A stretch of 45,968 nt of DNA from Candidatus Dojkabacteria bacterium (lineage in GTDB: Bacteria > Patescibacteriota > Dojkabacteria > JAOAGR01). The notes beneath the pieces are model-generated. The model did no database searches. It saw only the letters and a program-made list of their open reading frames with translations, and was not told where the DNA came from. The DNA lies in contig JBMCLJ010000001.1 of assembly GCA_048615375.1 (NCBI GenBank), forward strand, positions 1-45,968. The letters run 5' to 3'. The stretch's first letter is position 1, and each line of letters starts with the position of its first letter. Of the stretch, positions 20,890 through 45,968 are shown piece after piece. The translations under genes were made by a program, and so were the position numbers.

Positions 20890-20917
20890 ACCACAACAGT
20901 GATTTATGACAGCGTCA

Positions 20918-20933
20918 TGACATAATTATGTCA
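20918..20933. promoter_or_regulatory. Perfect 16-bp palindrome TGACATAATTATGTCA in the tlyA / phd-like divergent intergenic region
   Basis: Read directly from the sequence. It is preceded by a second small palindrome, TGACAGCGTCA, and lies about 60 nt upstream of the antitoxin-like ORF. Confidence 0.35.
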
Positions 20934-20994
20934 ACTTTCCGGTTCACCCCTGGATTTTCTTCATAAACTATGCAATTATGGTACCATCAGTACT

Positions 20995-21264
20995 ATGAAG
21001 TCAGACCAATATTCCACTATCAGGGAATTACAACGGGATTACAAAAAGATAGCGAAGAAAGTACAGGAGTCAGGCGAACCATTAGTCATTGTCACCGGAA
21101 ACGAGCCACAATTTGCCGTAATCAGCCTCGATGCCCTGCACAAGCTGCAGCAACAAGCCAGCAACTCCACCACCGCGCCATCTGACAAACCAGACCACAC
21201 CCACACCGCCAGGGCACTGAGAAAACTTGCAGATATATTGGATGGTGGTGAAACTCAGGAGTAA
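20995..21264 (+). CDS. Phd/YefM-type antitoxin-like protein
   Basis: The N-terminus (STIRELQRDYKKIAKKVQESGEPLVIVTGNEPQFAVISLDALHKL) fits the Phd/YefM fold pattern. No cognate toxin ORF lies downstream. Confidence 0.65.
   Translation: MKSDQYSTIRELQRDYKKIAKKVQESGEPLVIVTGNEPQFAVISLDALHKLQQQASNSTTAPSDKPDHTHTARALRKLADILDGGETQE
21220..21253 (+). repeat. 34-bp perfect direct repeat, left copy
   Basis: AGAAAACTTGCAGATATATTGGATGGTGGTGAAA, identical to 22824-22857. Confidence 0.95.
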
Positions 21265-30518: not shown

Positions 30519-33500
30519 TCACCCCTTATACTTTTTCTTCATCATCGCGTACACGAATGTTGGGAACACCGTCAGTGTGAGAAAAGTTGACGCGGTCATA
30601 CCAAGCACAATAGACCAGCCTAATCCTGCCCATACAGGGTCACTGACTAATGTTAATGAACCAAGGATAGTAGTCATAGCTGTCAGAACAATCGGCCGGA
30701 GTCTTGTTGCAGCGGCGTTAATCAGCGCTTCCTGAAAGTTCTGACCGTCTTTTTGAAGCTGATTCAGATATTCAACCATAATTATCGCGTTATTTACTAC
30801 AATTCCTGCAAGTGCTATAACACCTATCATCGAAGTCGCATTAAAGTACAGATCAGTAATCTGATATAACAGCGCGTACCCTGGCATAACACCAATCAAA
30901 CCGAGTGCGACGGTTCCTAAAATTAATAACGCGAGCTTGTATGACCGGAATTGAGCTACCAAAATTGCGTAAATCAAAAAAATACCTACCAGCATTGCCA
31001 AACCGAGATCCCGAAACACATCCAGCGTCAGCTCCCATTCCCCATCCCAACTCACACTGTACCTGAATCCAGTGTCAAGATCTTCATATTCAGCTCCATA
31101 TAGTCCAAAGCCTACTCTCCTGGAGTTTTCTGTCCATGGTAATGAGTAGTTCCACATCTCCTGGAGAATATCTATTGCCGCGTAAGTAACACTACGCTCG
31201 CCCATCTCAGCCTGGACAGAATACGCTATATCGTTATTTTCACTGTGGATCACATTATCTCTATAAACATACTCCAGTGTAACAACATCACCAAGTCTCA
31301 CCTGCTTATCTGCACGTACTTTATACACTTCGCCTTCAATCTGTGTCTTTGTAGTTGGAACGTAATTGATTGTAAGATCCTTAAGTCGTTCAATATCCTG
31401 TTCGTACTCTTTTGGGAAAGTAACAAAAACATTCTCACGTTCTTTATCGACTGTCTCACGATATAATGTAGCGACTCTACCATTAAGTGCAATATCAAGG
31501 TTATGGATAATATCCGATGTATTGAGCCCCATATTCCCTGCTTTCTCAAGTTCTACGTTAAAAGAGATAGTCTGAACTGGCTCAGCAACTGTGGTATCTA
31601 TATCCATGACTCCTTCGGTATTTTGAAATATCCCTTCAAAATCCTGTGCAATTAATTTGAGTTTTTCTCTGTTTTCATCTGTTATATTTTCACGATTCTG
31701 ACCTTTAACAGTAACCATAGCAGTTGATCGAACAGGTGGTCCCGGCGCATCTTCCACGATAGTCAGCTTGGCATCCTTAAACATGTCGATAGATTCCTGT
31801 AGCTCTGGACGTAGATCCAGCGCGACCTCTTCTGACTTGTTTGCACGATTTTCGTAGAGATTTATTTTAATTGTAGCCTGATTTTTGCCTGTCCTTCCAG
31901 AAACTCCCCGGAACATACCATTAAAATCAGTAATCGGGGATGCTGCTATGAAGGTCTGTACACTTGCTACATCCTCGTGTTCAAGTATTTTGTCCTCAAT
32001 ACGTTTTGACTTTTCCAGAGTATCTCCCAGGGCTGTGTCATCTGAATAGTCAATGTATACATACATCTTTTCTTTATCGTCTTTTGGCAACATTCTGAAC
32101 TTTACTGCTTGTACAGCAGGAAGAGAAACAGCAAGAAGGACCAGTAGAATACTCCCTGACATGACTGATCTTCGGAGAACTTTCCGGGAGATAATTGCAG
32201 TAAGGAAACGTTTGTAGGATTCATAAAACCTGGTACTTCTGGACGGTTCTGAAGCATGAGCCCTTGACTGTTTTTCTTCTACTTTCGACTTCACAAGCCT
32301 GGAAATCAGAAATGGATTCAATGAATAAGCTATTACAAGGCTTCCAATAAGCGCGACAGGAACAAAGAATGGTATTGGCCCCATATATGGCCCCATCATT
32401 CCTGTAACAAATGCCATGGGGAAAAAAGCCAGCAAGGTGGTTGCGGTAGCGAGAAGCAACCCGGTACCAACTTCCCCGACTGCTTTGGCGACAGCGAGGT
32501 GCCTGTCGGCCTTTCGCATAGAAATATGTCGCACCGCGTTTTCAACGATCACGGTTGCATTATCAACAAGCAGACCCAGACTCAGGATTAATGCGAAGAG
32601 TGTGATTCTATTAATAGTTTCACCGGAAATGAGAGCAATGCCAAAAACTACAGAAATCGTTAACGGGATAGCCATTGCCGCGGTTAGAGCCGGCCTCCAC
32701 CCAAGAAATAGAAAGAGTATAATCGCGACAATTCCTATTGCCAGGAATAGACTTATGGTGAGATCCTGAATTTCTTTATTTGCTACCTCTCCATCGTTTC
32801 GAACAGTTTGCATCACAATATCCTCAGGCAAATTCAACTCTTCCGCTCTTTGCAATATCGCATTGGATACCACTGCTATGTTAGAACCCTCTTCTTTAGC
32901 TAGAGAAATGTACACAACATTATGCTCTCCATAGTCTTTATCTTTATAACGGATATAACGCTTCTGCTCCACAGCGGTATGCTCTACTGTAGCGATATCT
33001 TTCAATAGAACAGGCTTACCAGCAACCTTGGTTATGACTACATTGCGAGCTTCTTCTTCATTCTCAAATAGCGCATTGACTTCAACGACACTTCGAGCCT
33101 CATCATCGCCTGGCTCTTTTATAAATTCATCGGAAACAAAGTATCTATAACTATTTTGCCCTACTTTACCCACGACAATTCCTGGATCAATCTTGAATTG
33201 AGTAAGTTTATCTGGATCGAGCGTTATTTTTAGCTCTTTCTGTATACCCCCATGTATCTGAACGTTCGTTACCTGTGGTACTTTTTTCAATACTTCCGCG
33301 TAGTCAACGGCGTATTCACGCATTGTGACAAGAGAATTCTGATCGCTTAGTAACGCGAGTGTCACGATAGGAACGTCATCCGGATCCTGGGCCAGTATAG
33401 TAATTCGCTCGACTTTATTTACTACGCCTGGGACATCGTTCCTCAGCTCATCAACTTTTTGACGAAGCTTGATATTTGACTCTTCTTCATCTTCTCCTAC

Positions 33501-33866
33501 ATAGTAGTTCACTGTAATTACAGCACTGCCACCTTCTGTGGTAGTACTCATAACATCTTCTACCGTGGGTATATCCAGGATTCCATCCTCAAACACCCGG
33601 GTAATCCTGTCATAAAATTCAGCACTCTCCGCACTTGGGGCTTCAAGGAATACCTGGTACGAAGGTGCTGTAATTTTCGGATCATACTGTTTTGGCGTAA
33701 GAATGAACGATACAATTCCCCAGATAAAGATTGTAACAATCAGCAATATGCTTAACTGAGAATTTTTTATAAAGAAATGAGCAATTTTTCCTGCCCAGTT
33801 CAGTTGTTCTACCGTATTGTTTGGGTGAGATTTCTTATTCATTGATGTGCCTGGTTTATTTAACAA
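30519..33866 (-). CDS. RND-family efflux transporter permease (AcrB/CzcA-like)
   Basis: 1115 aa with the 12-TM, two-large-loop architecture. The conserved TM4 region is LSLGLLVDNATVIVEN. No adaptor or outer-membrane component lies adjacent. Confidence 0.9.
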   Translation of the reverse strand: MLNKPGTSMNKKSHPNNTVEQLNWAGKIAHFFIKNSQLSILLIVTIFIWGIVSFILTPKQYDPKITAPSYQVFLEAPSAESAEFYDRITRVFEDGILDIPTVEDVMSTTTEGGSAVITVNYYVGEDEEESNIKLRQKVDELRNDVPGVVNKVERITILAQDPDDVPIVTLALLSDQNSLVTMREYAVDYAEVLKKVPQVTNVQIHGGIQKELKITLDPDKLTQFKIDPGIVVGKVGQNSYRYFVSDEFIKEPGDDEARSVVEVNALFENEEEARNVVITKVAGKPVLLKDIATVEHTAVEQKRYIRYKDKDYGEHNVVYISLAKEEGSNIAVVSNAILQRAEELNLPEDIVMQTVRNDGEVANKEIQDLTISLFLAIGIVAIILFLFLGWRPALTAAMAIPLTISVVFGIALISGETINRITLFALILSLGLLVDNATVIVENAVRHISMRKADRHLAVAKAVGEVGTGLLLATATTLLAFFPMAFVTGMMGPYMGPIPFFVPVALIGSLVIAYSLNPFLISRLVKSKVEEKQSRAHASEPSRSTRFYESYKRFLTAIISRKVLRRSVMSGSILLVLLAVSLPAVQAVKFRMLPKDDKEKMYVYIDYSDDTALGDTLEKSKRIEDKILEHEDVASVQTFIAASPITDFNGMFRGVSGRTGKNQATIKINLYENRANKSEEVALDLRPELQESIDMFKDAKLTIVEDAPGPPVRSTAMVTVKGQNRENITDENREKLKLIAQDFEGIFQNTEGVMDIDTTVAEPVQTISFNVELEKAGNMGLNTSDIIHNLDIALNGRVATLYRETVDKERENVFVTFPKEYEQDIERLKDLTINYVPTTKTQIEGEVYKVRADKQVRLGDVVTLEYVYRDNVIHSENNDIAYSVQAEMGERSVTYAAIDILQEMWNYSLPWTENSRRVGFGLYGAEYEDLDTGFRYSVSWDGEWELTLDVFRDLGLAMLVGIFLIYAILVAQFRSYKLALLILGTVALGLIGVMPGYALLYQITDLYFNATSMIGVIALAGIVVNNAIIMVEYLNQLQKDGQNFQEALINAAATRLRPIVLTAMTTILGSLTLVSDPVWAGLGWSIVLGMTASTFLTLTVFPTFVYAMMKKKYKG

Positions 33867-34548: not shown

Positions 34549-35262
34549 CTATTGAAAGATCTTTACCTCCAATGCCGGAAATTTTTCCTTCACATATCCT
34601 AACCCTGCTCTTAATACTTCCACAATCACAATCCCCATAATCCTTACAATAACCAGACACAATGCAAATACTGCAGTATTTCTCACTACACCAAACACAA
34701 CAATACCTGCGAAAACACTCATAAATAAGAGAAATACCTCTCCAAACCTCTCTCTGGTTAGCTGATCAACGGTGACTTTGTTTTTATACTGTAAGAGTAC
34801 ATAGTTTACCAGGAGGTCAAGGAGATATACCCCCACGATTAGTGCAAGCGATATGTAACTAATACTAACCTTACTCCAGAAAGTTTCACCTTGCTCATAT
34901 ACCACAAGTGCAAGAAAACCAAGCAGCGCGGTAGTAATTCCCGCAAAAAGCACAAACTCAGCGACAAAACGTAGTAACTTCGCTACACACACATAGAATA
35001 AAATTCGAGTCCTCTGTTTTTTGTACTCCTCAGCAGACATTTTATTTGTAATCTGTTTCAGAAGCTCAGGGTGCAGCATGACTTTAAAAAAATGGAACAC
35101 CATGCCGATATAGATTTCCGCGATAAAATATGCCAGCATCTCCTCCCCACTCCACGAAAAAGCCAAAATCCCCACTAGCGGCACGCAAGCAAAAAACAAG
35201 GAGTTAAACAGGTTTTTGTAGTTGAAGTAGCGATTAAAGGACATGTGAAAGTTATTATACAA
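34549..35262 (-). CDS. Multi-pass membrane protein, unknown function
   Basis: 237 aa with at least five hydrophobic helices. It contains the master copy of the 116-bp repeat. Confidence 0.55.
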   Translation of the reverse strand: MYNNFHMSFNRYFNYKNLFNSLFFACVPLVGILAFSWSGEEMLAYFIAEIYIGMVFHFFKVMLHPELLKQITNKMSAEEYKKQRTRILFYVCVAKLLRFVAEFVLFAGITTALLGFLALVVYEQGETFWSKVSISYISLALIVGVYLLDLLVNYVLLQYKNKVTVDQLTRERFGEVFLLFMSVFAGIVVFGVVRNTAVFALCLVIVRIMGIVIVEVLRAGLGYVKEKFPALEVKIFQ

Positions 35263-35683
35263 TATTGGTTGGTGTCAATACATGCAGATAATTTACTACA
35301 GCAGCTTTGCGATGCATAATTACATACTATGAGTATATATCGGGAGCAGAATATCTCCATCCATCCACCATCCATCAAGTCATATTGAACCAATCCAATC
35401 ATCATTATAGTGGATGGGGTATAAACATTTCCAGCAAAAAGACATGCCAGAAGATAACATTCTCCCGGCAGTAATCATACTTCGACGAAGACTCATTACA
35501 ACAGCTAATGATAATCATAAAGCATAACCTTAAAAAAGGACTTGCAACATTTGCCTTTCTATATCATAATTCCCGTAGTTGAATGTGACAGTGTGTAAAT
35601 TTGACAATTCGCGAATGCACGTGCAGCGGTCTTTTATCAGCAATTTACATAATGACACATTAGCACAGTGACACATTCAATAT

Positions 35684-35755
35684 GGCTCCATAGTACAGCG
35701 GTTAGTACGCTGGGTTTTCATCCCAGTAACCGGGGTTCGAATCCCCGTGGAGTCA
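35684..35755 (+). tRNA. tRNA-Glu (anticodon UUC)
   Basis: 72 nt. The acceptor is GGCTCCA/TGGAGTC, the anticodon loop is TT-TTC-AT, and the T-loop is TTCGAAT. CCA is not encoded. Confidence 0.9.
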
Positions 35756-35893
35756 TTTTATGATATGTATTTCATGAAATAAACGACATATAATCTTCTA
35801 ATTTCTTCTCGTAGGTATAGTCCACTATTCCAGATTGTACTGCTATGTATAGGTTGCTTTAATTTAAATGGGTTTTATCCAATTGACAGCGCT

Positions 35894-36628
35894 GTGCTAA
35901 AGAAAGTTAGAGGTATTTTTGTGAATCCAATGCGTGAAATATTTGCAAATTTGCCTTTTTACATTACTTTCTCAGAATGGATTAAAAAGAGTGATAAATA
36001 CGATCGTGAAGAATCTTTTGCTAGAGCTTTTAAATTATTAGGAATTGATCAAGATAGATTGAGAGCAATCGAATTATTTAGAACTTTTAATAACTTTGAT
36101 AGGAAATTATTAAGCTTAAATTTAAAAGAGTTTAGCTCACTGCCTTCCAGTTATAAATCCGAGGGTAGTGAATACGCTAAATTATTCTTAAATTCTATAC
36201 CACAAATCTTTAAGGACTATGAAGGCTTACTCAAGCTGATTACAAAAGTTAAAAAAGGAGAAGCTATAACGAATGAGTTCTTTAGCAAGTTTGATTGGTT
36301 TCCTACTAAAATCGATATTCCAAGATATTTTAACGAGATAGTTGGGATTATAGAAAAAAGAATAGATTTAATTAGTTCATCTAAAAATAATATCATTTTC
36401 GTTGAAGCCAGTAAATTTAACGATGTGATGAGTGAAAAGTATAAAGGTAAACAAAGGTTAAATATATCTCAAGAGGATGAGAACGTGATATTAGATTTAA
36501 TCTCTTCGTTGATAAAAGAAGAGCAAAGATTGTTTGTGGAATATTTGAATACACAATCAGTATCTTTAGACGAGAAGTTTAAGAACATCTTCCGACGAAG
36601 GGTTATTAATAGATTCTCAATAAATTAA
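35894..36628 (+). CDS. Hypothetical protein
   Basis: 244-aa AT-rich ORF with a GTG start on the track; an internal ATG lies at about 35930. No motif recognised. Confidence 0.45.
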   Translation: MLKKVRGIFVNPMREIFANLPFYITFSEWIKKSDKYDREESFARAFKLLGIDQDRLRAIELFRTFNNFDRKLLSLNLKEFSSLPSSYKSEGSEYAKLFLNSIPQIFKDYEGLLKLITKVKKGEAITNEFFSKFDWFPTKIDIPRYFNEIVGIIEKRIDLISSSKNNIIFVEASKFNDVMSEKYKGKQRLNISQEDENVILDLISSLIKEEQRLFVEYLNTQSVSLDEKFKNIFRRRVINRFSIN

Positions 36629-36629
36629 T

Positions 36630-37097
36630 ATGAACGACAAAGAATTACTCAAAAAACTAATCTCAATCCAAAGTTATGTAGATTCATCTAGAAATGAAAA
36701 GGAGATCGCAGATTTTTTAGTGAAATATCTTAAAGAGAATTTACCGTGGCTAGAAGTAGAGACTCAACAAGTTGAAGGGGATCGATACAACATCATTGCT
36801 AAGAATTCTGATAATCCAGACTACGTATTCATCTCTCACATGGACACAGTTCTGCCTAGTTCTAAAGATCAACTATATCCTTTTGAAAAAGACGGCAGAA
36901 TTTACGGACTCGGATCTACATATAAAACAAACTTGTCTAATGGAGGCTTTTTTGAGGCTGCGATTGTTGCAAACGCATGGAATTGTCTAGCGATTTCTTA
37001 TGGACCAGTTGGCACAGCTCACACTCCTGATGAGTATATTGAGATTCAAAGCTTTTTGAATTGTAAATCTAAATTTAAAGAACTACTGAAATCATAA
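36630..37097 (+). pseudogene. M20-family (ArgE/DapE-like) peptidase with large internal deletion
   Basis: The N-terminal part (LLKKLISIQS...YVFISHMDTV, then GRIYGLGS) is joined directly to the C-terminal part (ISYGPVGTAHTPDEYIEI). It is 155 aa against about 350-400 aa for the family. The DMK and dimerisation/lid region is absent. Confidence 0.55.
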
Positions 37098-37098
37098 A

Positions 37099-37347
37099 AT
37101 GGATATAATAAAAACACGAAAAATTCTAAAGCTGAGTAAAGATGACTACGCTGATGAAGAGGTTCAAGAAATAATTGATCAAACCGAAATGCTTGCAAGA
37201 TTTTTTATTGATATGCATATGAAAGATCAACTAAATGTTGAAGGAATTGAGGGGCTAGATCAAAATGTATTGAATCAATCGAAAATAATAAGATTATTTA
37301 CGAATCTTAAAACTAGCAAGTCAAAGTGTAGCAGTAAAAATGGCTAA
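37099..37347 (+). CDS. Small hypothetical protein
   Basis: 82-aa ORF starting 2 nt after the previous stop. Confidence 0.4.
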   Translation: MDIIKTRKILKLSKDDYADEEVQEIIDQTEMLARFFIDMHMKDQLNVEGIEGLDQNVLNQSKIIRLFTNLKTSKSKCSSKNG

Positions 37348-37550
37348 GTTATATAAGTTCTAAATTCGTGTTTAGTGATGAAAACCATTGTACAATAAGA
37401 CGAATTGCTTCTATGAGGCCAAAGAAGAAAGAGTTCGACGCTGAGACCCGTAGGGTCAAAAATACGCAGAGCGATGCGTGAATAGTAATGCGTAAAACCC
37501 TTCATAATATTTAACCAATAATAATATCCCGCTTTTTAAGATAAATATAT

Positions 37551-37597
37551 TTGACAATGTAAAGCTGTTACGATATGATATTGCGACTGAGTCGTAA
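37551..37597 (+). promoter_or_regulatory. Candidate promoter (TTGACA-17-TATGAT) plus 17-bp near-palindrome operator
   Basis: TTGACA is at 37551-37556 and TATGAT at 37574-37579. The near-palindrome TTGCGACTGAGTCGTAA at 37581-37597 pairs at 7 of 8 arm positions and ends 3 nt before the fur-like ATG. Confidence 0.4.
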
Positions 37598-37600
37598 TAA

Positions 37601-37969
37601 ATGATTATGAAAAATTTAAGACATTCTAAAAAACGAGATTTAATATTAGAAGTATTTCAGAATGGCGACTTATTAGATGCAAATGAAGTTTGTGCAAAAG
37701 TTCCTCAAGTAGACAGAGCTACAATTTACCGAAACCTAACTTTATTTGTTGAACAGGGAGTTTTAAGGGAGGTAAATATTAAAAAGGGGATCACGCATTA
37801 CGAATTAAACCATGAAGGAGACATTCATCAACATTTTGTTTGTGATGATTGCGATAAGGTGATTCCTGTAGATGTTGATCCAAATCTAATTAAATCACTT
37901 GTTCCAGAAGGAGTTGAGCTTAAAGATTTTGAGTTAAATCTGAAGGGTAAGTGTGGCGAGTGCAAGTAA
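37601..37969 (+). CDS. Fur-family metalloregulator (Fur/Zur/PerR/Nur-type)
   Basis: 122 aa with a wHTH (ATIYRNLTLFVEQGVL), then HQHFVCDDC and a C-terminal CGEC (HxH plus two CxxC pairs). Confidence 0.85.
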   Translation: MIMKNLRHSKKRDLILEVFQNGDLLDANEVCAKVPQVDRATIYRNLTLFVEQGVLREVNIKKGITHYELNHEGDIHQHFVCDDCDKVIPVDVDPNLIKSLVPEGVELKDFELNLKGKCGECK

Positions 37970-37994
37970 TATTTTTATTTTAAATGAAACAATT

Positions 37995-38960
37995 ATGAGA
38001 ATCGCATTTATGGGTAAAGGCGGAAGTGGGAAGACAACTCTAACTACTGCCTTTGCAAAATTTTTATTAAAACAAAAAAAAGATACACCAGTATTTTTAT
38101 TTGACGTAGATTTGAATTCACATATAGCAAACGAATTGGAAATTGATTTCCCTATTGAAAATTTTTTTGGAGGGAAATTTAAAGAAGTTTCAGACTTTAT
38201 TGAACCACAACTTTTAGAAAGATTATCTTTAAAGGAAATTCCAGAATTTGGAACAATTCTACCAAACCAAGATACTAAATTCATAAAATTAGATGATGTT
38301 GAAAATAAGTTTGTTAATAGATATGGAGTTAAGAAAGATAACTTAACACTTTTTGCAGCAGGAAATCACTTAACAAAAGATCATGCAGGGCATTCTTGTT
38401 ACCACGATATGCTTAATACTTATGAATTAATCATGCATAGAATTGCTGATAATAAAAATAATTATGTGATTGCAGATACTACAGCAGGAATAGACAATGT
38501 AGGGACTTCTTTATATATGGCATATGATCTTGTTGTATTTATTGTTGAACCGACAGATAGAAGTATTGCAGTTTATAAAGATTATATAAATGTAGCTGAG
38601 GTAGATAAATCAAAAGTATTTGTTGTTGGAAATAAAATTGAGAATGAAGCTGATGAGAAGTTTATCAAAAAAATTATTGAAGAAGACAGAATTCTTGCCT
38701 TATTTAAAGCCAATAAAGAAATTTATAGAGATGCAGACCAGACTTCCTACGACCATTTTATAGAAGAACATAAAGACCAATTACAAACTATTCTTAATAA
38801 ACTTGATAGCACTGATAAAGATTGGGATTCGTACTTTCAAGAACTTTTCAGATTATTCAAAAAAGAGACCACCGGATGGTGGAGTGATTTTTATGGAGTT
38901 GATCTTGAAGACAAGTTTAAAGAAGATTATTCATTTATAAATAATAATTTTAATAATTAA
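37995..38960 (+). CDS. CooC-like (SIMIBI/MinD-class) P-loop NTPase, paralogue 1, with C-Y-H motif
   Basis: Has the deviant Walker A MGKGGSGKTT, then GHSCYHDM, IADTTAGIDN, VEPTDRSI and VGNKIENEADEKFI, collinear with CooC-type proteins. The start is taken at the internal ATG (MRIAF) 25 nt after the fur-like stop. Confidence 0.75.
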   Translation: MRIAFMGKGGSGKTTLTTAFAKFLLKQKKDTPVFLFDVDLNSHIANELEIDFPIENFFGGKFKEVSDFIEPQLLERLSLKEIPEFGTILPNQDTKFIKLDDVENKFVNRYGVKKDNLTLFAAGNHLTKDHAGHSCYHDMLNTYELIMHRIADNKNNYVIADTTAGIDNVGTSLYMAYDLVVFIVEPTDRSIAVYKDYINVAEVDKSKVFVVGNKIENEADEKFIKKIIEEDRILALFKANKEIYRDADQTSYDHFIEEHKDQLQTILNKLDSTDKDWDSYFQELFRLFKKETTGWWSDFYGVDLEDKFKEDYSFINNNFNN

Positions 38961-38964
38961 TATT

Positions 38965-39915
38965 ATGAAAATTGCATTTTTAGGGAAAGGTGGGAGTGGT
39001 AAAACAACATTATCTGCTGCATTTGCTACATATATGCATGAACAGGAAAAGAATGTGCTTTTAGTAGATGCAGATGTAAATGTTCATGTAAATAGAATTA
39101 TCGGAATTGAAGAATCGGATCTTCAACCTATTTCAAGAAATATGAATGGAATTGTCAGTTATGTTAAGGGAGAGAGAGTTGATTTGGGAAATGCTCCATT
39201 CATTAGTGCTACTCCTCCATCAAAAGGATCAAGGTTTATAACTTTAGAAAAAGAAGATGAATTACTAAAAGGAAGTACAGTAAGTAATAAGGAAGGTTTA
39301 AGATTAATGACTATCGGAACTTATGAAGGCGAAGATATAGGGTTTACCTGTTATCATGGAAAAACAGATGCATTCATAATTTTCTTAAATCACTTGTTAG
39401 ATACAACTAGTGACTATTTAGTTGTAGATTCTGTCACAGGTACAGATAATCTAGGAAATCCACTAATCTACTCGTATGATCTAAATGTAATTGTAGTCGA
39501 ACCTACAAAAAAATCTATTCAAGTCTACAAAGATTTCATTCAAGGCATTGAAAGATTCGATTATCCAATAAACATTGTCGTTATTGGAAATAAAGTTGAA
39601 ACCAAAGAAGATGAAGAATTTATAAAACAACATATTAAGGGGGAACACTTGTTAGGATTTGTAAGTAAATCTGATGAGATGAAATCTTTTGACCAGGGCA
39701 GTAAAGATGATTTTAAGAAATTTGTAAGTGCAAACTCCGAAATCTTTAACAAAATATTAAAAGAATTAGATTCAAAGCAAAGAGATTGGGATTTATATTT
39801 AAAAAATATCAGAGCAAATTTTTCCCAAATGGCTCAGGAATATTACAACAGTTACTATCATGTTGATTTAGAATCCAGAGTTGATAATACTTTTTCATTT
39901 AAAGACGTTGTTTAA
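38965..39915 (+). CDS. CooC-like P-loop NTPase, paralogue 2, with C-Y-H motif
   Basis: LGKGGSGKTT, GFTCYHGKT, VVDSVTGTDN, VEPTKKSI and IGNKVETKEDEEFI. Same architecture as paralogue 1, including a helical C-terminal extension of about 70 aa. Confidence 0.75.
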   Translation: MKIAFLGKGGSGKTTLSAAFATYMHEQEKNVLLVDADVNVHVNRIIGIEESDLQPISRNMNGIVSYVKGERVDLGNAPFISATPPSKGSRFITLEKEDELLKGSTVSNKEGLRLMTIGTYEGEDIGFTCYHGKTDAFIIFLNHLLDTTSDYLVVDSVTGTDNLGNPLIYSYDLNVIVVEPTKKSIQVYKDFIQGIERFDYPINIVVIGNKVETKEDEEFIKQHIKGEHLLGFVSKSDEMKSFDQGSKDDFKKFVSANSEIFNKILKELDSKQRDWDLYLKNIRANFSQMAQEYYNSYYHVDLESRVDNTFSFKDVV

Positions 39916-39916
39916 T

Positions 39917-41338
39917 ATGTATCAATCTATTAAGCCATACATTCATCCTAGATTAAAAGGGGTTGTCGAAGCTAAAAATAAGTTATTTGAAGTTTCTAAA
40001 TTCCATAATGGAGCAATTCATATCCTCATGCCCGAAATAATGGATGAAAATATAAGTGAATTAAAAAAAGTTTTTGAAGAATTAGGAATAGATTATGATA
40101 TTAGATTTGCACACAAAACTAATAAATCATCTGCTCTTGCAAGGCAAGCAAAGTTAAACAAAATTAATATTGATGTTGCTTCATACAATGAATTAGTCTC
40201 AGCTTTATCGAATGGATTTACAGGGAAAGAGATCAGTTGTTCAGGACCAAAAGGTAAAAAATTCTTATTATTAGCTCTGCAACATAACTGTTTAATAAGC
40301 ATTGATTCAGTAAATGAACTTGAAACTATTATTGATTTATCTAAAAAATACAATATTTCAAGTATTGATATCGTTGTGCGAATCAATGATCTAGCAGGTA
40401 ACGATAGAACTTTATTAAAAAAGAATACAAAGTTTGGTATATCACAAAATAAATTGGAAGAGATTAAAAATCTTATTAAAAAAAATGAGTTTATAAATTT
40501 AAAAGGAATACATTTTCATTTCGATGAGTTTCAATCTGAAATTAAAGCAGGTGCAATTGAGAATATTTTAGATATTTTTCAACAACTTTATTCGGAAGGT
40601 TTTACACCAACAATTATTGATATAGGTGGGGGATTTAGAGTAAAAGAACTTGAAGATAGAGGTGATTGGGAAAAGTATATAGATTTTTTAAGTGATGCAA
40701 AAAGAAATAATACTCTAAGTGATACCTGGGGAAATAGAGCCTACGGAATTCATACAAATGAAAGAGGAGGAATTGAAGGTCGAGAAATAGTTACTAAAAG
40801 ATACAGAGAACTTAATAATAGTGAATTTTTAAAATCAATTCTAACCAAAGAGTTTGAAGAGAACCAGCCAATTTATAAAAAGATAAATGAAAGTTTATTC
40901 AAAGTAATGATTGAACCTGGATATTCTCTTTCAATTAATACAGGATTTACTATTTTAAAAGTTGAATCATATAAGACTTTAAACAATGGCGATGAAGCAA
41001 TTACTGTTAATGCAAATATACTAAATCTATCTAGCAGAATGTGGGAATACTATTTAGATCCAATTTTAGTTGCAAAAGAAGAAAAGAATGGTGGTGATTT
41101 TTATGGGTACATACTTGGAAATCTATGTAGAGATGATGATGTGTTAATTCAAAGGAAAGTTCATTTTAGCCAAAGACCAAAGGTTGGAGATTTGATTCTA
41201 TTAATGAATACTTCATCTTATATTTCTGATTTTGAAGATGGCAATCCTATTCAACAGGAAGTAGGAAAGAAATTTATTGCAAAAAATATTAATAATTCAA
41301 TTGAAATATTTGATGAGAATTCATCAGAACTTATTTAA
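39917..41338 (+). CDS. Fold-type III PLP-dependent decarboxylase (Orn/DAP/Arg decarboxylase family)
   Basis: Contains FAHKTNKS (the PLP Lys), IDIGGGF, EPGYSL and GNLCRDDD. The start is taken at the ATG at 39917, 1 nt after the upstream stop. Confidence 0.8.
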   Translation: MYQSIKPYIHPRLKGVVEAKNKLFEVSKFHNGAIHILMPEIMDENISELKKVFEELGIDYDIRFAHKTNKSSALARQAKLNKINIDVASYNELVSALSNGFTGKEISCSGPKGKKFLLLALQHNCLISIDSVNELETIIDLSKKYNISSIDIVVRINDLAGNDRTLLKKNTKFGISQNKLEEIKNLIKKNEFINLKGIHFHFDEFQSEIKAGAIENILDIFQQLYSEGFTPTIIDIGGGFRVKELEDRGDWEKYIDFLSDAKRNNTLSDTWGNRAYGIHTNERGGIEGREIVTKRYRELNNSEFLKSILTKEFEENQPIYKKINESLFKVMIEPGYSLSINTGFTILKVESYKTLNNGDEAITVNANILNLSSRMWEYYLDPILVAKEEKNGGDFYGYILGNLCRDDDVLIQRKVHFSQRPKVGDLILLMNTSSYISDFEDGNPIQQEVGKKFIAKNINNSIEIFDENSSELI

Positions 41339-41352
41339 CTTATAAAGATTTT

Positions 41353-42666
41353 ATGATTTACAAACACATATCACAGCTTATTGGGAACACTCCAATATTA
41401 GAAGTACCAAAAGAAGTTACAGATTTAAAAAATATAAATTTGTATGCAAAACTTGAATATATGAATCCATTTGGTTCATTAAAAGATAGAATTGCTAAAA
41501 ATATGCTTGAACCTATAAAAAGTGAAATGAAAGATTCAAATAAAACAGTTTTAGAAGCTTCAAGTGGAAATACAGGTAAAGCATTAGCAATCTTATCTTC
41601 TGTAGATGGAATAAAGTTTAAAGCTGTCTCAAATAGAATGAAAATTCCAGAGATGAGAATGATTATGCAACTTAGTGGTGCAGAGATTGAAGAATTACCT
41701 GGTATTTCGGATTGTCCGGATTTAAACGACCCAAATAGCTATACAACTGCTGCAAGCAATATGGCCAAAAATGAACCCGATAAATATCGCTACACTGACC
41801 AGTATTTTAATGAAAGAAACTGGCAAGCACATTTAGAAAGCGGAAAAGAAATAACTGAAGAACTAAGTAAAGTAGATTTCTTATTTACAATGCTTGGGAC
41901 TACAGGTTCATCTGTAGGAATCGGAAGAGCTTTAAAAGAAGTAAATCCTGAACTAAATGTTTATGGTGTTGTTGCATCAGCAGGTCAACATATTCCAGGT
42001 GCAAGGAATTCAAATGAATTGTGGGAGGTTGGATTTTATAATCCAGAGTTCTATAAAGACATTCTTTCTGAAACTACTGATGGTGCAATTAGTGGAGCTG
42101 TTAGTCTTATTCAAAAAGTAGGAATTTTATCCGGACCAACTGCTGGAGCAACATTTAATGCGGCATTAAAAAAACTAAAAGAATTAGATAAAGAGTTAGA
42201 AGGTAAGAATGAAACATATCACGCAGTATTCATTGTATGTGATAGAGTTGAGCCATATCTAAATTTCTTTAAATCTCATAAACCTGAACTATTTAGTAAA
42301 TCTACTTCATCAAAACCAAAAGTTAGTGATGTAGTGGTAACCGATACAGAGAAAATTAAAATCTCAATAGATGACCTTAAAAATCGTCAGAATGAATTCA
42401 TGGTTATAGATATAAGAGGAAACTTCCCGTACTCTATTGGACATATTGAATCATCAATTAATATTGTAGATGAATCATTGGCCAATATGATTGAAGAAGG
42501 AAAAGTATTCCCAATGGATAAAAAAATTGTTGTAGTTTGTAGGATTGGAGACATTTCAGGAAGGTATGCTCAATTTCTAAGAAATCAAGGATATGAAGCC
42601 TATTCATTAGATGGTGGAATACAAAATTGGAAAGATAAAAATTTAGAGTTAGGAAAAACTATTTAA
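41353..42666 (+). CDS. Cysteine synthase/CBS-fold PLP enzyme fused to a C-terminal rhodanese domain
   Basis: The PLP-enzyme part has MNPFGSLKDRIA (the PLP Lys), SSGNTGKALA and GTTGSSVGIG. The C-terminal part has VIDIRGNFPYSIGHIESSINI...VVVCRIGDISGRYAQFL...LDGGIQNW, a rhodanese with its active-site Cys. Confidence 0.85.
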   Translation: MIYKHISQLIGNTPILEVPKEVTDLKNINLYAKLEYMNPFGSLKDRIAKNMLEPIKSEMKDSNKTVLEASSGNTGKALAILSSVDGIKFKAVSNRMKIPEMRMIMQLSGAEIEELPGISDCPDLNDPNSYTTAASNMAKNEPDKYRYTDQYFNERNWQAHLESGKEITEELSKVDFLFTMLGTTGSSVGIGRALKEVNPELNVYGVVASAGQHIPGARNSNELWEVGFYNPEFYKDILSETTDGAISGAVSLIQKVGILSGPTAGATFNAALKKLKELDKELEGKNETYHAVFIVCDRVEPYLNFFKSHKPELFSKSTSSKPKVSDVVVTDTEKIKISIDDLKNRQNEFMVIDIRGNFPYSIGHIESSINIVDESLANMIEEGKVFPMDKKIVVVCRIGDISGRYAQFLRNQGYEAYSLDGGIQNWKDKNLELGKTI

Positions 42667-42668
42667 CT

Positions 42669-43388
42669 ATGTCCTATAGTAAATTCTGTGAAATAAACGA
42701 CTATATTTTTGAAGCTCCTAATGAAGCTCGTAAAGTTAAATTTCAAAAACTTTTCAGCAAAGTTAAGGGTGAGAATGTTTTAGATTTAGGATGCGGATAT
42801 GCAGGAATTTATTGGGCATTATCATATTTCGAAAGAGTAAATCACATTTATTTCTATGATTATTATCAAGAAAATATTGATAGATTGAACTCTATTATTG
42901 ATCAACTAACTCCTGAATATATAGAAGAAAGTTTTTCTGAAACTATTGAATATCTAAAAGATATTAATTTGATTTATAGAACAAAATCCTATTCGCAAAT
43001 CGCAGAAGAGTTACTTTCAAAAATAAAAGTGGTAAAACAACAAAGTTTTTTTAATGAACTTCCAACTTTTAATTTTGATATTGTTGTCTCAAGTGAGGCA
43101 ATTGAATGTGTTGATAATGAAACTGAGTTCAAAAGTGTATTAAAGAATATTTTTTCTTCACTAAAATATAAAGGGAAATTAATTGGAAATATTCTTAATT
43201 ACAGCAAAACAACTGACTTAACAAAAGAACTCATTTCATCAAAGATGGAAGGTAAATTAAATCCTAATGAGAATGAGCTAGAAGTATTACTTAAAAAAGC
43301 AAATTTCAATAATGTTGATATTGAAGTTGTTGAGTTTCCAGAATTAAATAATCGATCTAAGTATATTTATTATTCTGCGGTAAAGTGA
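42669..43388 (+). CDS. Class I SAM-dependent methyltransferase (NNMT/PNMT/TEMT-like by pattern)
   Basis: Motif I is VLDLGCGYAGIYWALSYFERVNHIYFYDYYQENI. The resemblance to the PF01234 pattern is by eye only. Confidence 0.65.
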   Translation: MSYSKFCEINDYIFEAPNEARKVKFQKLFSKVKGENVLDLGCGYAGIYWALSYFERVNHIYFYDYYQENIDRLNSIIDQLTPEYIEESFSETIEYLKDINLIYRTKSYSQIAEELLSKIKVVKQQSFFNELPTFNFDIVVSSEAIECVDNETEFKSVLKNIFSSLKYKGKLIGNILNYSKTTDLTKELISSKMEGKLNPNENELEVLLKKANFNNVDIEVVEFPELNNRSKYIYYSAVK

Positions 43389-44587
43389 TAATCTCCAAAA
43401 TCCTATTTCCCACACTAAACAACTCAGAATTAACATACTTAGACTCAGCCTCTACTACTCAAAAACCAAAAGTGGTATTAGATGCAATTCAATCACATCT
43501 TTCGGAACTAAACGTGAATCCTGGACGTGGAAGTTACGATCCTACATCAAAACTTGAGAAGGAGATAGAATCAATACGAAACCAAACTGCAAACTTTATC
43601 AATGCAGAAAATAAAGAAATCGTATTTACATCAGGTGCAACAGAAGGACTAAACACAGTTGCATATTCATGGGGTTTGCATAATTTAGAAGATGGAGATG
43701 AGATTTTATTATGTGAAGAAGATCACGAATCTACAGTTAAACCATGGTTTCAAATTAAAAAACTTTTTGAAAAGCAAGGAATAAATATTTTTATAAAATA
43801 TTACAAACATCACCAATATCTTGGCAATGCAGATCTTGAAAGCATAAAAAATGAACTCACAGATAAAACAAGGCTGATTGTTGTTACTCATATTCACAAT
43901 GTCCACGGGACTGTTTCTGATATGAAGGTAATTAGAAAATTAGCAGGTGATCAAGTTTTAATTCTTTTGGATGCTTGCCAAAGTATTTCTCACATCCAAA
44001 TTGATGTTAAGGAACTAGATATAGATTTTCTAGTTTTCTCTGGACATAAAATGTTTGCACTCGATAATATCGGAGTTTTATTTGCAAACCAAAATATTAA
44101 TATGTATTTACAACCATTTATTGTCGGTGGGAAAAATATAATTGACAAACATGATCTTGAAGAAAAGGGTGTTGAGATTTATAAGATACTTGAAGCAGGA
44201 TCACAAAATGTTACAGGTTTAAAATCGCTTGAAGCAGCAATCAACTTTATTCAAGGAATAGGATATGATGAGATACATAAATATATTAATGAGCTAACAA
44301 AATATCTTTACGAACAGCTCTCTCAGTTAGGAATCATAGAATTTCTTGCGGGCTATGCATTCGACCAATCTAGGATTGGATATGGATTAATTTCATTTCG
44401 AGTACACGGAGTCAGTTCAACAGATATTGGCGAGCTACTTAATCAACACCAAATTTATGTACGAACTGGGAACCATTGCACATCAAATGGAAAACATACA
44501 AGTGATTCTATAAGAGTATCAATGCATATTTACAACAGCAAAGATGATATAGATAAATTGATATCTGTGCTTAAAACGATTCACTAA
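43385..44587 (+). CDS. Class V aminotransferase, SufS/CsdA-like cysteine desulfurase
   Basis: Contains YLDSASTTQKP, TSGATEGLN, VTHIHNVHG, FSGHKM (the PLP Lys) and RTGNHCT (the catalytic Cys). The GTG start overlaps the upstream stop (GTGA). Confidence 0.8.
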   Translation: MIISKILFPTLNNSELTYLDSASTTQKPKVVLDAIQSHLSELNVNPGRGSYDPTSKLEKEIESIRNQTANFINAENKEIVFTSGATEGLNTVAYSWGLHNLEDGDEILLCEEDHESTVKPWFQIKKLFEKQGINIFIKYYKHHQYLGNADLESIKNELTDKTRLIVVTHIHNVHGTVSDMKVIRKLAGDQVLILLDACQSISHIQIDVKELDIDFLVFSGHKMFALDNIGVLFANQNINMYLQPFIVGGKNIIDKHDLEEKGVEIYKILEAGSQNVTGLKSLEAAINFIQGIGYDEIHKYINELTKYLYEQLSQLGIIEFLAGYAFDQSRIGYGLISFRVHGVSSTDIGELLNQHQIYVRTGNHCTSNGKHTSDSIRVSMHIYNSKDDIDKLISVLKTIH

Positions 44588-44702
44588 CAAATATCAACAA
44601 CAAAGTTATCTTAGCTATATGTTAAAAGCAAATTGTGAATTTTTGAGTGAAAAGCTCATCTCCGAGAACAGTTGTAGGAAGGACTTTATAGCATTCAAGA
44701 TC

Positions 44703-44737
44703 GAGTTCGACATTTCGCTACGCGGGGTCATTTTATG
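44703..44737 (+). repeat. Degenerate copy of the tRNA-Glu 3' end plus flank (possible att remnant)
   Basis: GAGTTCGAC-N13-GGGGTCATTTTATG compares with the tRNA sequence GGGTTCGAATCCCCGTGGAGTCATTTTATG. The 11-mer GTCATTTTATG is exact, and the spacing differs by 5 nt. Confidence 0.3.
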
Positions 44738-44950
44738 TAATACATATCACGAAATAGATATCATAACGCTTTTTAACTTCGAATTTTTATAATTTCCAAT
44801 CTTGTTGCTATACATACTAAGTCAGTAGTTAAGTATGCTCAAGTTTATTCAATCTAAAAATATAAATTTGCATACAAGTGGAATTTTTGCGAGCTGCTGA
44901 AAATTGAATAAATGTATATTTTTACATCTTTCGCACTAATCCCTATAGGA

Positions 44951-45916
44951 TCATGTTAGATTCTGTTCCAAATAAATCTTCATATTTTGAGTGATAGTAG
45001 GTTTAATAACATCCCATTTCTGCTGGTACATAGAGATTTCTTCATTAAGTCTTCTCCTGCTTCTTTTGATCCAGGTAATAATACTTAAGGTAATATGATT
45101 CCTTTGAGATCGTCCCGAGTGAGACTGACATTTCTCTAAACCACAGCATTGTTTTAACTCTCTGTGGTATACCTCGATCTCCCATCTGCCTTTGAAGACT
45201 TTTTTGATTTCTTCTCTTGTTGGGTTTTCTTGATTAGTACCTACATAATCCGTGCGTCCGTCTCTGGATACAAACCGGAATACTGTTATAAATCCATAAC
45301 CCTTTAAATGAACTTTTACTCCTTGTTCTGGTATATCAAGTGTTCTTAATTCCTGCTTTCTGTTTACATGTCTATTGCTTTTTAACCCCATTACCCAAAC
45401 CCATCCAAGTTGCCTTATGCACTTTAGGTTATCAAGGCTTGAGTACCATGAGTCTGCTACTACATACTCTGGTGTTAATCCTCGTTTGTGAGTATTGATA
45501 AGCATCTCTCTAAAGTGATCATTTTTGGTTTTTCCATCTTCTGGTGGATTGTAAATTCTGTAATCAAATGGAACTTTATCGTCTTCCATCAATGCCACAA
45601 AGTTAAGTATACCTATTCCAGGTATTGTCTCATGAACGTTTCCAGAACACTGCCAGTTTACAAGCTCTATTGCTTTGCTTCTGGATTTATCTGCTACGGT
45701 ATCATCTGCCATGAGAATGAAGGGTTTATTAATATATTTTGATGCCTCTTCCCATATGTCTGAAGGACTGTATTTATGATCTTTAAGCCAGCGGGAGATG
45801 GAATCGTGTGATACGTTAACAGGAGATACTTCTGACATAGATAGAGAGCTGTATCTATCAGCTGTGCTCATCAAAAATGAGCAATATAATTCTTTGCTAC
45901 ATTTACTTTGTGACAT
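44951..45916 (-). CDS. IS701/IS4-superfamily DDE transposase
   Basis: 321 aa with LMADDTVADKS, YVVADSWYSS and GRWEIEVYHRELKQCCGLEKCQ. The flanking inverted repeats are weak (CCCTATAGG at 44941 against CCCTCTATAAG on the minus strand at 45955-45965). The element may run off the window end. Confidence 0.8.
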   Translation of the reverse strand: MSQSKCSKELYCSFLMSTADRYSSLSMSEVSPVNVSHDSISRWLKDHKYSPSDIWEEASKYINKPFILMADDTVADKSRSKAIELVNWQCSGNVHETIPGIGILNFVALMEDDKVPFDYRIYNPPEDGKTKNDHFREMLINTHKRGLTPEYVVADSWYSSLDNLKCIRQLGWVWVMGLKSNRHVNRKQELRTLDIPEQGVKVHLKGYGFITVFRFVSRDGRTDYVGTNQENPTREEIKKVFKGRWEIEVYHRELKQCCGLEKCQSHSGRSQRNHITLSIITWIKRSRRRLNEEISMYQQKWDVIKPTITQNMKIYLEQNLT

Positions 45917-45968
45917 GGTAGTTTATTTTTATCTATACCATTATAAAACTTTTTCTTATAGAGGGTAG

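Follow-up and report, generated by a model that had tools for sequence, protein, structure and literature searches.

A stretch of 45,968 nucleotides from a Candidatus Dojkabacteria bacterium (positions 1 to 45,968 of contig JBMCLJ010000001.1, assembly GCA_048615375.1; the window, below, is this whole stretch) contains an operon of seven same-strand open reading frames (ORFs), spanning 37601-44587, which very probably is a conserved functional module. The genes encode a Fur-family regulator, two CooC-like ATPases, a methyltransferase and three pyridoxal phosphate (PLP) enzymes: a decarboxylase, a CysM-like enzyme fused to a rhodanese (the fusion protein), and a SufS-type cysteine desulfurase. 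The explanation that accounts best for the whole, to which we give a little less than an even chance, is that the operon forms a pathway, induced by metal starvation, to a small ligand with nitrogen and sulfur donors, equipped with a metallochaperone of CooC type.

Conservation of the Module

The seven proteins were searched against the six-frame ORFs of all loci; the counts given here are for the best 80 of at least 593 relatives, confirmed among the first 600 matches to the pattern with one genome per species. The decarboxylase gene adjoins the fusion gene on the same strand in 77 of these 80 loci. In 70 of them the same strand carries a SufS-type gene no more than 6 kb away, and both are present in 68; several of the misses lie at contig ends. 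This synteny spans at least eight phyla as well as archaea. The conserved unit is a core of three PLP enzymes, and the ATPases, the Fur-family protein and the methyltransferase are lineage-variable accessories. An earlier reading of the window, made from its letters alone (the sequence-only reading), had proposed an undescribed seven-gene operon. Its gene order is conserved in many genomes, with a division into core and accessories that the reading had missed, and neither a description of the module or its ATPase family nor a matching characterised pathway was found in the topical literature, reviews of Zur regulons and COG0523 included, or as a curated model in NCBIfam or Pfam.

The cultured carriers among the best 80 include many Nocardia, Streptomyces, Actinoplanes and Micromonospora, together with Gordonia terrae, and those known from metagenome-assembled genomes (MAGs) include members of the Patescibacteria, Alpha- and Gammaproteobacteria, Bdellovibrionota, Clostridia, Bacillales, Obscuribacterales and Woesearchaeota. 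Carriers are also described as Melainabacteria, Firmicutes and Gracilibacteria. A search with the fusion protein gave more than 4,600 relatives, the top 120 of which are all fusions of the PALP and Rhodanese domains at 44-92% identity.

The core appears in several arrangements. In the Streptomyces type (24 loci), decarboxylase, fusion protein and SufS are followed by a non-orthologous Methyltransf_25 protein. In the Nocardia type (36 loci), the order is SufS, a 428-residue protein, decarboxylase and fusion protein; the 428-residue protein (7177-8463 (+) in locus L013, and in 35 others) ends in an HMA domain with the motif MTCKHC and has nothing recognised by Pfam in the ~340 residues of its N-terminal part, and the idea that it is a divergent form of the ATPase is ruled out by an hhalign probability of 0.2%. 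The Firmicute type reads (Fur)-ATPase-decarboxylase-fusion-SufS-(Fur). Extended forms add an amine oxidase dependent on flavin adenine dinucleotide (FAD) or a DAO, further methyltransferases, a Cys_Met_Meta_PP enzyme, or a gene of the octopine-dehydrogenase family, or have the ATPase joined to a HAD phosphatase.

To exemplify such an extended form, consider locus L094 (6934-17689, GCA_030431715.1), where an ATPase, an ATPase-HAD phosphatase fusion, an unknown 390-residue protein and a Cys_Met_Meta_PP enzyme lead the cluster, which continues with decarboxylase, PALP-rhodanese protein, NNMT-like methyltransferase, SufS and DAO; the presence of a HAD domain may be a sign that one of the intermediates is phosphorylated. 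A Bdellovibrionota MAG (L009, 2860-10422) has two convergent pairs of decarboxylase and PALP-rhodanese genes around a 490-residue protein with no Pfam matches, with cobW next door and with neither SufS nor ATPase. Gracilibacteria relatives, including L088, use genetic code 25, and under table 11 the L088 locus gave no translation that corresponds to the query; several database homologues have W at a family-invariant G, which probably is UGA read as Trp and can distort alignments.

Structure of the Operon

Profile annotation of each protein with Pfam and NCBIfam confirms all seven genes and their domains as they had been called from the sequence (Table 1). The intergenic gaps along the operon are 25, 4, 1, 14, 2 and -4 nt, so that the spacing of -4 to +25 nt given in the sequence-only reading holds once two starts are corrected. 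The first ATPase (ATPase1) starts at ATG 37995 (MRIAFMGKGGSGKTT), in parallel to MKIAFLGKGGSGKTT of the second (ATPase2), and the GTG at 37953 in the ORF list is upstream of the conserved MRIAFMGKGGSGKTT start. The decarboxylase starts at ATG 39917 (MYQS), one base past the ATPase2 stop, and the listed TTG at 39881 would overlap ATPase2. Both listed starts are artefacts, because the list uses the first start after a stop. The SufS start overlaps the methyltransferase stop by 4 nt, and the SufS gene is coupled in translation to its neighbours.

Table 1. Positions of the operon genes and of the candidate control elements in the window
Feature	Position	Strand	Characteristics
Sigma-70-type promoter TTGACA-17-TATGAT	37551-37579	+	-35 at 37551-37556, -10 at 37574-37579
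Operator candidate, 7-3-7-type palindrome TGCGAC-TGA-GTCGTA	37582-37596	.	just downstream of the -10
Fur-family regulator	37601-37969	+	122 residues; PF01475 6e-19
CooC-like ATPase, paralogue 1	37995-38960	+	deviant Walker A with signature Lys, DVDLNSH, SCYH
CooC-like ATPase, paralogue 2	38965-39915	+	GKGGSGKT, DADVNVH, TCYH, NKxE/D
Fold-type III PLP decarboxylase, DAP/Orn/Arg superfamily	39917-41338	+	Orn_Arg_deC_N PF02784 1e-24
CysM-like PLP enzyme fused to rhodanese	41353-42666	+	PALP 7e-46 and Rhodanese 2e-17
Class I S-adenosylmethionine methyltransferase, NNMT/PNMT/TEMT-like small-molecule type	42669-43388	+	PF01234 1e-10; Methyltransf_23
SufS-type (group II) cysteine desulfurase	43385-44587	+	Aminotran_5 PF00266 2e-95; TIGR01979 329 bits
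Weak terminator-like hairpin after the last gene	44712-44728	+	7 pairs, 3 GC, then T-rich tail; consensus match only

The CooC-like ATPases

The two ATPases are 32% identical to each other, and both match models of the CbiA/MinD class with GKGGSGKT. Among 46 diverse members of the family, the signature Lys8, the GKT of Walker A, D35-x-D37-x-N39-x-H41, C129-x-H131, the Walker B D155 and N209-K210 are invariant; both paralogues of the window keep the signature Lys and the Asp pair of Switch I, and ATPase1 keeps every family invariant. When the family profile is compared with the PDB, CooC1 (3kje) is matched with E 1e-25 and 94 bits, and MinD with 1.7e-8. The AlphaFold2 (AF2) model of ATPase2, with a mean predicted confidence (pLDDT) of 93.6, has CooC1 3kje as its top Foldseek match at 2e-11, against ~3e-8 for MinD, FleN and NifH. 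Since CooC1 is best both by sequence and by structure, the ATPases group with the CooC metallochaperone, as had been suggested from the sequence, and an identity as ParA/MinD partition proteins is ruled out. An identity as ligases or kinases of the BioD/CobQ type, to which the CbiA Pfam match and the HAD fusion might lead, is disfavoured, since a dimer-switch chaperone is what both the signature Lys and the Cys/His motif aligned with CooC suggest.

In the profile alignment, gstCYHgk of the family falls on GSQCYCRE of CooC1, which we take to be the C-X-C metal site of CooC. The first Cys is aligned and the second position is held by an invariant His, so that the motif is C-Y-H and not C-X-C; the CPH motif of UreG shows the same pattern. 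It is plausible that C-Y-H is a variant metal site and that it binds metal, and an ATPase dimer would then offer a Cys2His2 site suiting Zn, Ni or Co.

The family is compact and dedicated to the module, because a profile search among 1.84 billion representatives gives 279 ATPase clusters only (50% identity, E<=1e-30) and every sampled member lies in the module. The ATPase is present in 12 of the 80 loci, all of them outside Actinobacteria, and always adjoins the decarboxylase. Six distant relatives and an ATPase-HAD fusion (P0241), used as queries, are all in the same module. A search with ATPase2 gave 1,023 relatives, unnamed or automatically called 'CO dehydrogenase maturation factor'. Genes for carbon monoxide dehydrogenase/acetyl-CoA synthase (CODH/ACS) were seen neither in the scanned cluster proteins nor in the sampled gene tables, and the Pfam survey of 20 loci, with 145 neighbour ORFs, had none either, a screen that leaves aside the other 60 loci, mainly actinobacterial, and most other ORFs of the window.

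Orthologues of ATPase1 are found in L001, L087, L088 and L094. In L087, whose fusion protein is 91% identical to that of the window, ATPase2 and decarboxylase form one in-frame ORF of 790 residues (3823-6195 (+); ...FSFKSVFSMYQSIKPY...), which may be a fusion that exists in nature or may stem from a difference of 1 nt in the assembly, and elsewhere the ATPase is fused to a methyltransferase or to HAD. L004 has a second copy of the ATPase family beside NicO, ~4 kb beyond the module.

The PLP, Sulfur and Methyl Enzymes

The fusion protein has PLP Lys44, the SSGNT loop (S70-N73-T74), R218, Cys121 and rhodanese Cys396 invariant in 85 orthologues, including those from actinobacteria without ATPase. 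R218 has its aligned counterpart in the PG-R of E. coli CysM, Cys121 belongs to an insert peculiar to the family, LPGLSDCPDPxDPN, placed where CysK has its active-site entrance loop, and the rhodanese loop aligns on GlpE with Cys396 at the catalytic position. All scores are below the equivalog cut-offs (cysM 141 vs 394, SbnA 136 vs 350, cysK 128 vs 351 bits). Ranks 1-4 of the Foldseek search with its AF2 model (pLDDT 91.6) are taken by aspergillomarasmine A (AMA) synthase, 8H4H/8H4Q, at E 2e-31 over ~470 aligned columns and 24-25% identity; the chains are deposited as 'rhodanese domain-containing protein', and one structure holds O-phosphoserine.

The desulfurase does keep both the PLP Lys and the catalytic Cys, as first read: Lys222, Cys365 and R360, in an R-x-G-x-H-C loop, are conserved in 75 orthologues, and its 329 bits against TIGR01979 are under the cut-off of 475. 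SufE and SufU are both missing from the window cluster, and the fused rhodanese is presumed to be the acceptor of the SufS sulfur. The decarboxylase belongs to a divergent clade, with 114 bits against the lysA cut-off of 298; its best PDB matches are diaminopimelate (DAP) decarboxylases and BtrK, and K67, H201, GGG237-239, E333 and C404 are conserved in 84 orthologues. Judged by these residues and folds, the set is the full equipment of what would be a beta-replacement enzyme supplied by a persulfide relay, with a decarboxylation after it. That the product contains sulfur is nevertheless a proposition for which we would put the chances just short of even.

The methyltransferase varies with the lineage: orthologues are found in L001, L007, L008, L011, L087, L088 and L094, and non-orthologous methyltransferases take the same place in the 24 Streptomyces-type loci and in L082, L004 and L091. 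A PDB search with the methyltransferase gave no matches.

Promoter, Operator and Regulator

Both the promoter and the adjoining palindrome of the sequence-only reading are present, and the palindrome motif recurs in relatives. The promoter scores 11/12 and is the best site in 35000-45968; promoter-like sites overall are not enriched in the region, with 40 found vs 56 expected. At the equivalent place, L087, L001 and L012 have a TTGACA/TTGACT element and L008 has TATAAT.

A single match to the palindrome in the window is not significant alone (expected 0.78). The motif TGCRAC-N3-GTYGCA is, however, found within ~300 nt upstream of the cluster in L001, L087, L008 and L012, and by our own estimate ~1-2 exact matches would be expected by chance in the 1.7 Mb of loci. 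Because all matches lie close upstream of the cluster, with one or two expected overall, the recurrence is not chance. In L001 there are two copies ahead of cobW-fur-ATPase-ATPase-decarboxylase and the rest, in L087 there are two copies 24 nt apart, and in both the core promoter is overlapped. In L008 the motif is just upstream of TATAAT and ~60 nt ahead of the ATPase start. In L012 (5430-5735), TGCAAC-AGG-GTTGCA lies inside a TTGACA/TATACT promoter, with the ATPase ~300 nt further; here the operator fronts a 55-codon ORF (MRFYNVKTRQSEEISDDKV...) with a strong ribosome-binding site, after which come a hairpin and then the ATPase. L088 has a related palindrome, TTGAGAC-TAA-GTCTCAA. In the window, a degenerate copy, TGTAAAGCTGTTACG, lies in the promoter spacer at 37558-37572, 24 nt upstream, and matches at 8/12 positions by eye; with the same 24-nt spacing as in L087, it may be a second operator copy. 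Other boxes are AATGCAAAT-N-ATTAGCATT in L005 and L069 and a perfect TGAAAATNATTTTCA in L025 and L074. The latter is listed for mycobacteria as one of the predicted Zur sites (PMC4298942), and in Listeria it is found among the predicted matches to a regulator box, one of them beside the gene of an Fe(3+)-citrate-binding protein (PMC6843411).

The regulator has H-Q-H-x2-CxxC and a C-terminal CxxC (CDDC, CGEC), and the two CxxC pairs of a structural zinc site are thus present. It is below every NCBIfam equivalog cut-off, its best models are PerR/Fur, and its PDB matches are Fur, PerR and Nur. Genes for Fur-family proteins flank the module in ten loci (L001, L005, L012, L022, L025, L069, L074, L087, L088, L089). 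The operon probably regulates itself, through repression by the Fur-family protein that it encodes.

No riboswitch was found with Rfam in the window cluster or in the Streptomyces and Nocardia leaders. The conserved leader that loci of the Streptomyces type share ~80 nt before the decarboxylase (..CTTAGG..TGTACCTGGAAACGACTACTCCCGAAC..; L044, L050, L052, L054, L067 and others) continues into a GC-rich hairpin; it has no Rfam match and could act as a promoter or attenuator or represent a half-box, weak and Zur-like.

The Probable Link to Metal

The neighbours of the module were surveyed with Pfam on 145 ORFs from 20 low-GC loci and with targeted phmmer searches, single-linkage clustering being too noisy in the high-GC loci. 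Genes of cobW/COG0523 type lie within 10 kb in ~13 independent loci, sometimes in two copies, genes of ZnuA type in 4-5 loci and an ArsP_1 permease in six. Other neighbours are ABC-3 (ZnuB-type), a P-type ATPase, MerC, NicO and VIT1, and the protein with the HMA domain is present in all 36 Nocardia-type loci. This enrichment of cobW, znuA, ZnuB-type, ArsP_1 and HMA genes bears out the metal link that had been read from the sequence, and a link of the module to metal homeostasis is what we hold to be probable. That the metal is zinc, which is the likeliest candidate, stands at about even chances, judged from the neighbours of the related loci only. Metallophore clusters under the control of Zur are established in coelibactin, ethylenediamine disuccinate (EDDS) and pseudopaline biosynthesis (PMC6103462).

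In L044, a cobalamin riboswitch (20895-21072 (-)) lies ~10 kb from the Streptomyces-type cluster, near cobW-family genes.

Genomic Context

The cluster has ~30% G+C, and the rest of the contig ~40%. A tRNA-Glu(ttc) gene (35683-35756 (+)) directly precedes the low-GC segment (35800-45968), which ends at an IS701-family transposase gene (44951-45916 (-); NF049921, 347 bits). The nucleotide identity is 83.5% to L087 over 37994-44122 and 70% to L001 over 37995-44577, with unrelated flanks in both cases. Because the similarity to the closest relatives is confined to the cluster, the unit is fur-to-sufS on a mobile island. The low-GC segment looks like a tRNA-adjacent genomic island, a location that the sequence-only reading had missed; up to the end of the contig, no tRNA-derived direct repeat was found that would mark its far end.

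The tRNA and fur are separated by three small ORFs, which are not conserved with relatives. One of them, of 155 residues (36630-37097 (+)), covers no more of the M20 (DapE/ArgE-type) zinc peptidases than the N-terminal ~97 and C-terminal ~35 residues and is probably a deletion remnant. Elsewhere on the contig are a large subunit of ribulose-bisphosphate carboxylase of form II type (25576-27072 (-); PRK13475, 569 bits), an RND efflux permease (30519-33866), PepT, a RtcB-family ligase, and a tmRNA gene (10429-10853 (-); Rfam RF00023, 126 bits).

A Proposed Pathway

Consider first how the parts could work together. The metal-loaded Fur-family protein would bind the palindrome overlapping the promoter, and metal shortage would lead to derepression. 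The SufS-type desulfurase would then draw sulfur from cysteine as persulfide and pass it to rhodanese Cys396, from which it would probably move on to Cys121, in the loop where the active site opens. The CysM-like domain would make aminoacrylate from O-phospho- or O-acetyl-serine and capture the sulfane sulfur, which would yield a cysteine-persulfide or a thio-linked amino acid. The DAP-decarboxylase-like enzyme would strip the alpha-carboxylate, leaving an aminoethyl thiol or thioether, and the methyltransferase would methylate N or S. The pathway would end in a small ligand with N and S donors, which could be a metallophore or else a thiol that buffers metal inside the cell. The pair of CooC-type ATPases would form an ATP-dependent dimer with an interfacial Cys2His2 site, hand metal to or from the pathway, and work physically with the decarboxylase. 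Of this scheme, we infer the sulfur in the product, the order of the steps, the metal and the client of the ATPases. Cysteine synthases can use zero-valent sulfur (PMC13188885).

The interpretation offered in the sequence-only reading, a metal-responsive pathway to a sulfur-containing amino-acid derivative, or a supply of sulfur and metal to a metallocentre, with a dedicated chaperone pair, stands in part: genes, order, CooC grouping, operator and metal neighbours support it, and its weak parts are the sensed metal or stress, the sulfur in the product and the target of the ATPases.

Several observations weigh against the pathway just outlined. Its product is not known. Remaking a cysteine-like compound from the sulfur of cysteine looks wasteful, unless the sulfane state or an acceptor other than serine is what matters. 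A secreted metallophore would normally come with an exporter or importer, and the window cluster has neither. Nothing marks the regulator clearly as Zur, the Zur model giving 27 bits vs 46-51 bits for PerR/Fur, and TGAAAATNATTTTCA is a predicted Zur box in mycobacteria but, in Listeria, a predicted regulator-box match beside iron-uptake genes. As for the ATPases, actinobacterial loci are without them, their gene fusions may reflect adjacency only, and the decarboxylase has no conserved Cys/His metal site beyond its catalytic residues, so that no client is seen there. The only characterised enzymes that combine PLP and rhodanese domains, AMA synthase and Fda4, form C-N and not C-S bonds (PMC12751119), a point that the sequence-only reading had missed.

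From this last point follows the best of the alternatives, which has perhaps half the weight of the proposed pathway: aminocarboxylate chemistry of the marasmin, EDDS or staphyloferrin-precursor type, where the PLP and rhodanese enzyme joins O-phosphoserine to the amine of an amino acid, in the manner of AMA synthase, Fda4 and SbnA, and the product is a zinc chelator with N/O donors. An oxidase or a spontaneous step may release diaminopropionate, the decarboxylase would, like SbnH or AesC, make an ethylenediamine-type unit of it and the methyltransferase would N-methylate, with rhodanese and SufS being regulatory or serving another purpose. The AMA synthase structures with O-phosphoserine at the top of the Foldseek list strengthen the chelator reading in general and at the same time supply this rival C-N chemistry. 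They are joined by the score of the SbnA family, which is about that of CysM (136 vs 141 bits), by the FAD amine oxidase/DAO genes that recur in the extended clusters L004, L091, L092 and L094, by the precedent of the Zur-regulated EDDS cluster (PMC6103462), and by Fda4 itself, a PLP and rhodanese enzyme that leads, with the FAD oxidoreductase Fda3, to L-2,3-diaminopropionate (L-Dap; PMC12751119). Yet C-N chemistry needs neither the rhodanese and loop cysteines, invariant in 85 sequences, nor a SufS with intact Cys, syntenic in 70/80 loci; the identity to AMA synthase is 24-25% only and its rhodanese domain matches weakly, and the window has neither SbnB nor an oxidase gene.

Less probable, at well under one chance in five, is the assembly of a metallocentre or cofactor, either a metal-sulfur site or a small organometallic cofactor on a client enzyme, where the ATPases insert metal, SufS and rhodanese supply sulfur, and the organic ligand comes from the methyltransferase and the PLP enzymes. 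The affinity of the ATPases to CooC by profile and fold and their confinement to the module would fit, and the lineages without ATPase have metallochaperone-like parts of their own, the HMA protein in Nocardia and cobW in Streptomyces. To our knowledge, CooC-family proteins are known only as maturation factors of Ni-containing clusters, which also counts in favour. On the other hand, no candidate for a client metalloenzyme is conserved in or near the module; genes for CODH/ACS, hydrogenase or urease are absent nearby in the surveyed loci, and the core occurs without ATPase in 68/80 loci.

Of nearly the same low probability, if a shade below, is a role in stress or primary metabolism, by which the operon would be PerR-like and peroxide-responsive, or zinc-sparing, and make a low-molecular-weight thiol for redox buffering or provide a zinc-independent sulfur-trafficking or cysteine route bypassing zinc-dependent steps of the SufU/Mec type. 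The regulator does score best against PerR models, the neighbours in some loci are thioredoxin-like genes, a pair of glutathione peroxidase and thioredoxin-reductase-like genes, or desulfoferrodoxin, and lineages with tiny genomes (Patescibacteria, Gracilibacteria) keep the cluster. Such a role would leave the dedicated CooC-type ATPase and the decarboxylase unexplained, and the zinc-uptake and COG0523 neighbours point to metal supply, not to peroxide. Finally, a fortuitous juxtaposition of unrelated genes on the island, which the foreign character of the DNA (30% vs 40% GC, between tRNA-Glu and IS701) could suggest, is already refuted by an order conserved across phyla, by 83.5% and 70% identity to relatives over the cluster with unrelated flanks, and by overlapping or tightly spaced genes that at times are fused, and deserves almost no weight.

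Returning to the proposed ligand pathway, several products can be named by way of speculation: thialysine from lanthionine, by which DAP and lysine would be bypassed independently of zinc; taurine from cysteate; a methionine bypass; or selenium handling. A bolder version, which we consider unlikely though worth stating, is that a new CooC branch, marked by C-x-H, is integral not to CODH/ACS maturation but to small-molecule biosynthesis, in a widespread pathway not recognised so far, together with a persulfide-fed fusion enzyme and a decarboxylase, the product being a new sulfur-containing zinc ligand (a zincophore or a cytosolic zinc/redox buffer) or a metal-sulfur cofactor, and that the fungal marasmin synthases could derive from the bacterial family.

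If the proposed pathway is true, it would be a new chemical route, beta-replacement fed by sulfane sulfur and then decarboxylation, in bacterial metal homeostasis, and a CooC-family ATPase used outside carbon-monoxide enzymes would be a new type of accessory protein. The core is found in hundreds of species, and the hypothesis is directly testable because its carriers include culturable, clinically relevant Nocardia and Gordonia and genetically tractable Streptomyces. Ultra-small Patescibacteria and Gracilibacteria keep few biosynthetic clusters of several genes, of which the module is one, and its retention in such genomes suggests a basic role, in zinc acquisition or buffering or in the thiol pool. 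Marasmin-type zinc chelators inhibit metallo-beta-lactamases, and a new class of bacterial chelators could therefore have applied value.

Comparison with Known Systems

The opine metallophore clusters (staphylopine, pseudopaline; CntKLM) likewise make a chelator from amino acids under regulation by metal starvation. The window, unlike them, is without CntL (nicotianamine-synthase-like) and CntM, and a gene of the octopine-dehydrogenase family is beside the module only in L004 (Obscuribacterales). The absence of these types, and of IucA/IucC and EgtB/OvoA, from the window cluster had been noted in the sequence-only reading and is confirmed by the Pfam scan.

SbnA and SbnH, like the products of the aes genes, have their roles in metallophore pathways. 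The resemblance of staphyloferrin B biosynthesis (SbnA/SbnH) and of the Zur-regulated [S,S]-EDDS genes (aes, Amycolatopsis japonicum) to the module consists in a CysK-fold enzyme combined with a DAP-decarboxylase-fold enzyme under metal regulation (PMC6103462 for Zur). In contrast to staphyloferrin B, the seven proteins of the window include, by Pfam, neither an SbnB-type dehydrogenase nor an IucA/IucC synthetase, and in contrast to both systems the window adds rhodanese, SufS, methyltransferase and CooC-like ATPases.

The CysM-CysO-MoeZ system of Mycobacterium tuberculosis is alike in having a CysM-type enzyme with a conserved Arg and a protein-bound sulfur donor that is fed by a rhodanese (PMC3227635). 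It differs in that the window has no ubiquitin-like carrier or adenylyltransferase, the rhodanese being fused to the synthase and a decarboxylase being added.

AMA synthase and Fda4 are cysteine-synthase-like PLP enzymes that join O-phosphoserine to the amine of Asp or Ala; Fda4 of Fusarium is annotated with a rhodanese-like domain, and marasmins are metal chelators (PMC12751119). They share with the fusion protein the order of a PALP domain and then a rhodanese-like domain and, as the likely electrophile donor, O-phosphoserine, and AMA is a zinc chelator (PMC12751119). Unlike the fusion protein, they form C-N bonds and work without a partner desulfurase, decarboxylase or ATPase, whereas in the bacterial family the cysteines of the rhodanese and of the loop are invariant and SufS is syntenic.

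With CooC/AcsF, finally, the ATPases of the module share the deviant Walker A with its signature Lys, the DxD of Switch I and a metal motif at the same position. They are distinguished by an invariant His for the second Cys, the extra invariant His41, an insert of ~50 residues and a C-terminal helical extension, and by being always tied to PLP and sulfur enzymes, often as two paralogues. Two features, an ATPase of the CooC family and a CysM-like enzyme linked to a relay of SufS and rhodanese, are without precedent in a metallophore setting of Zur type.

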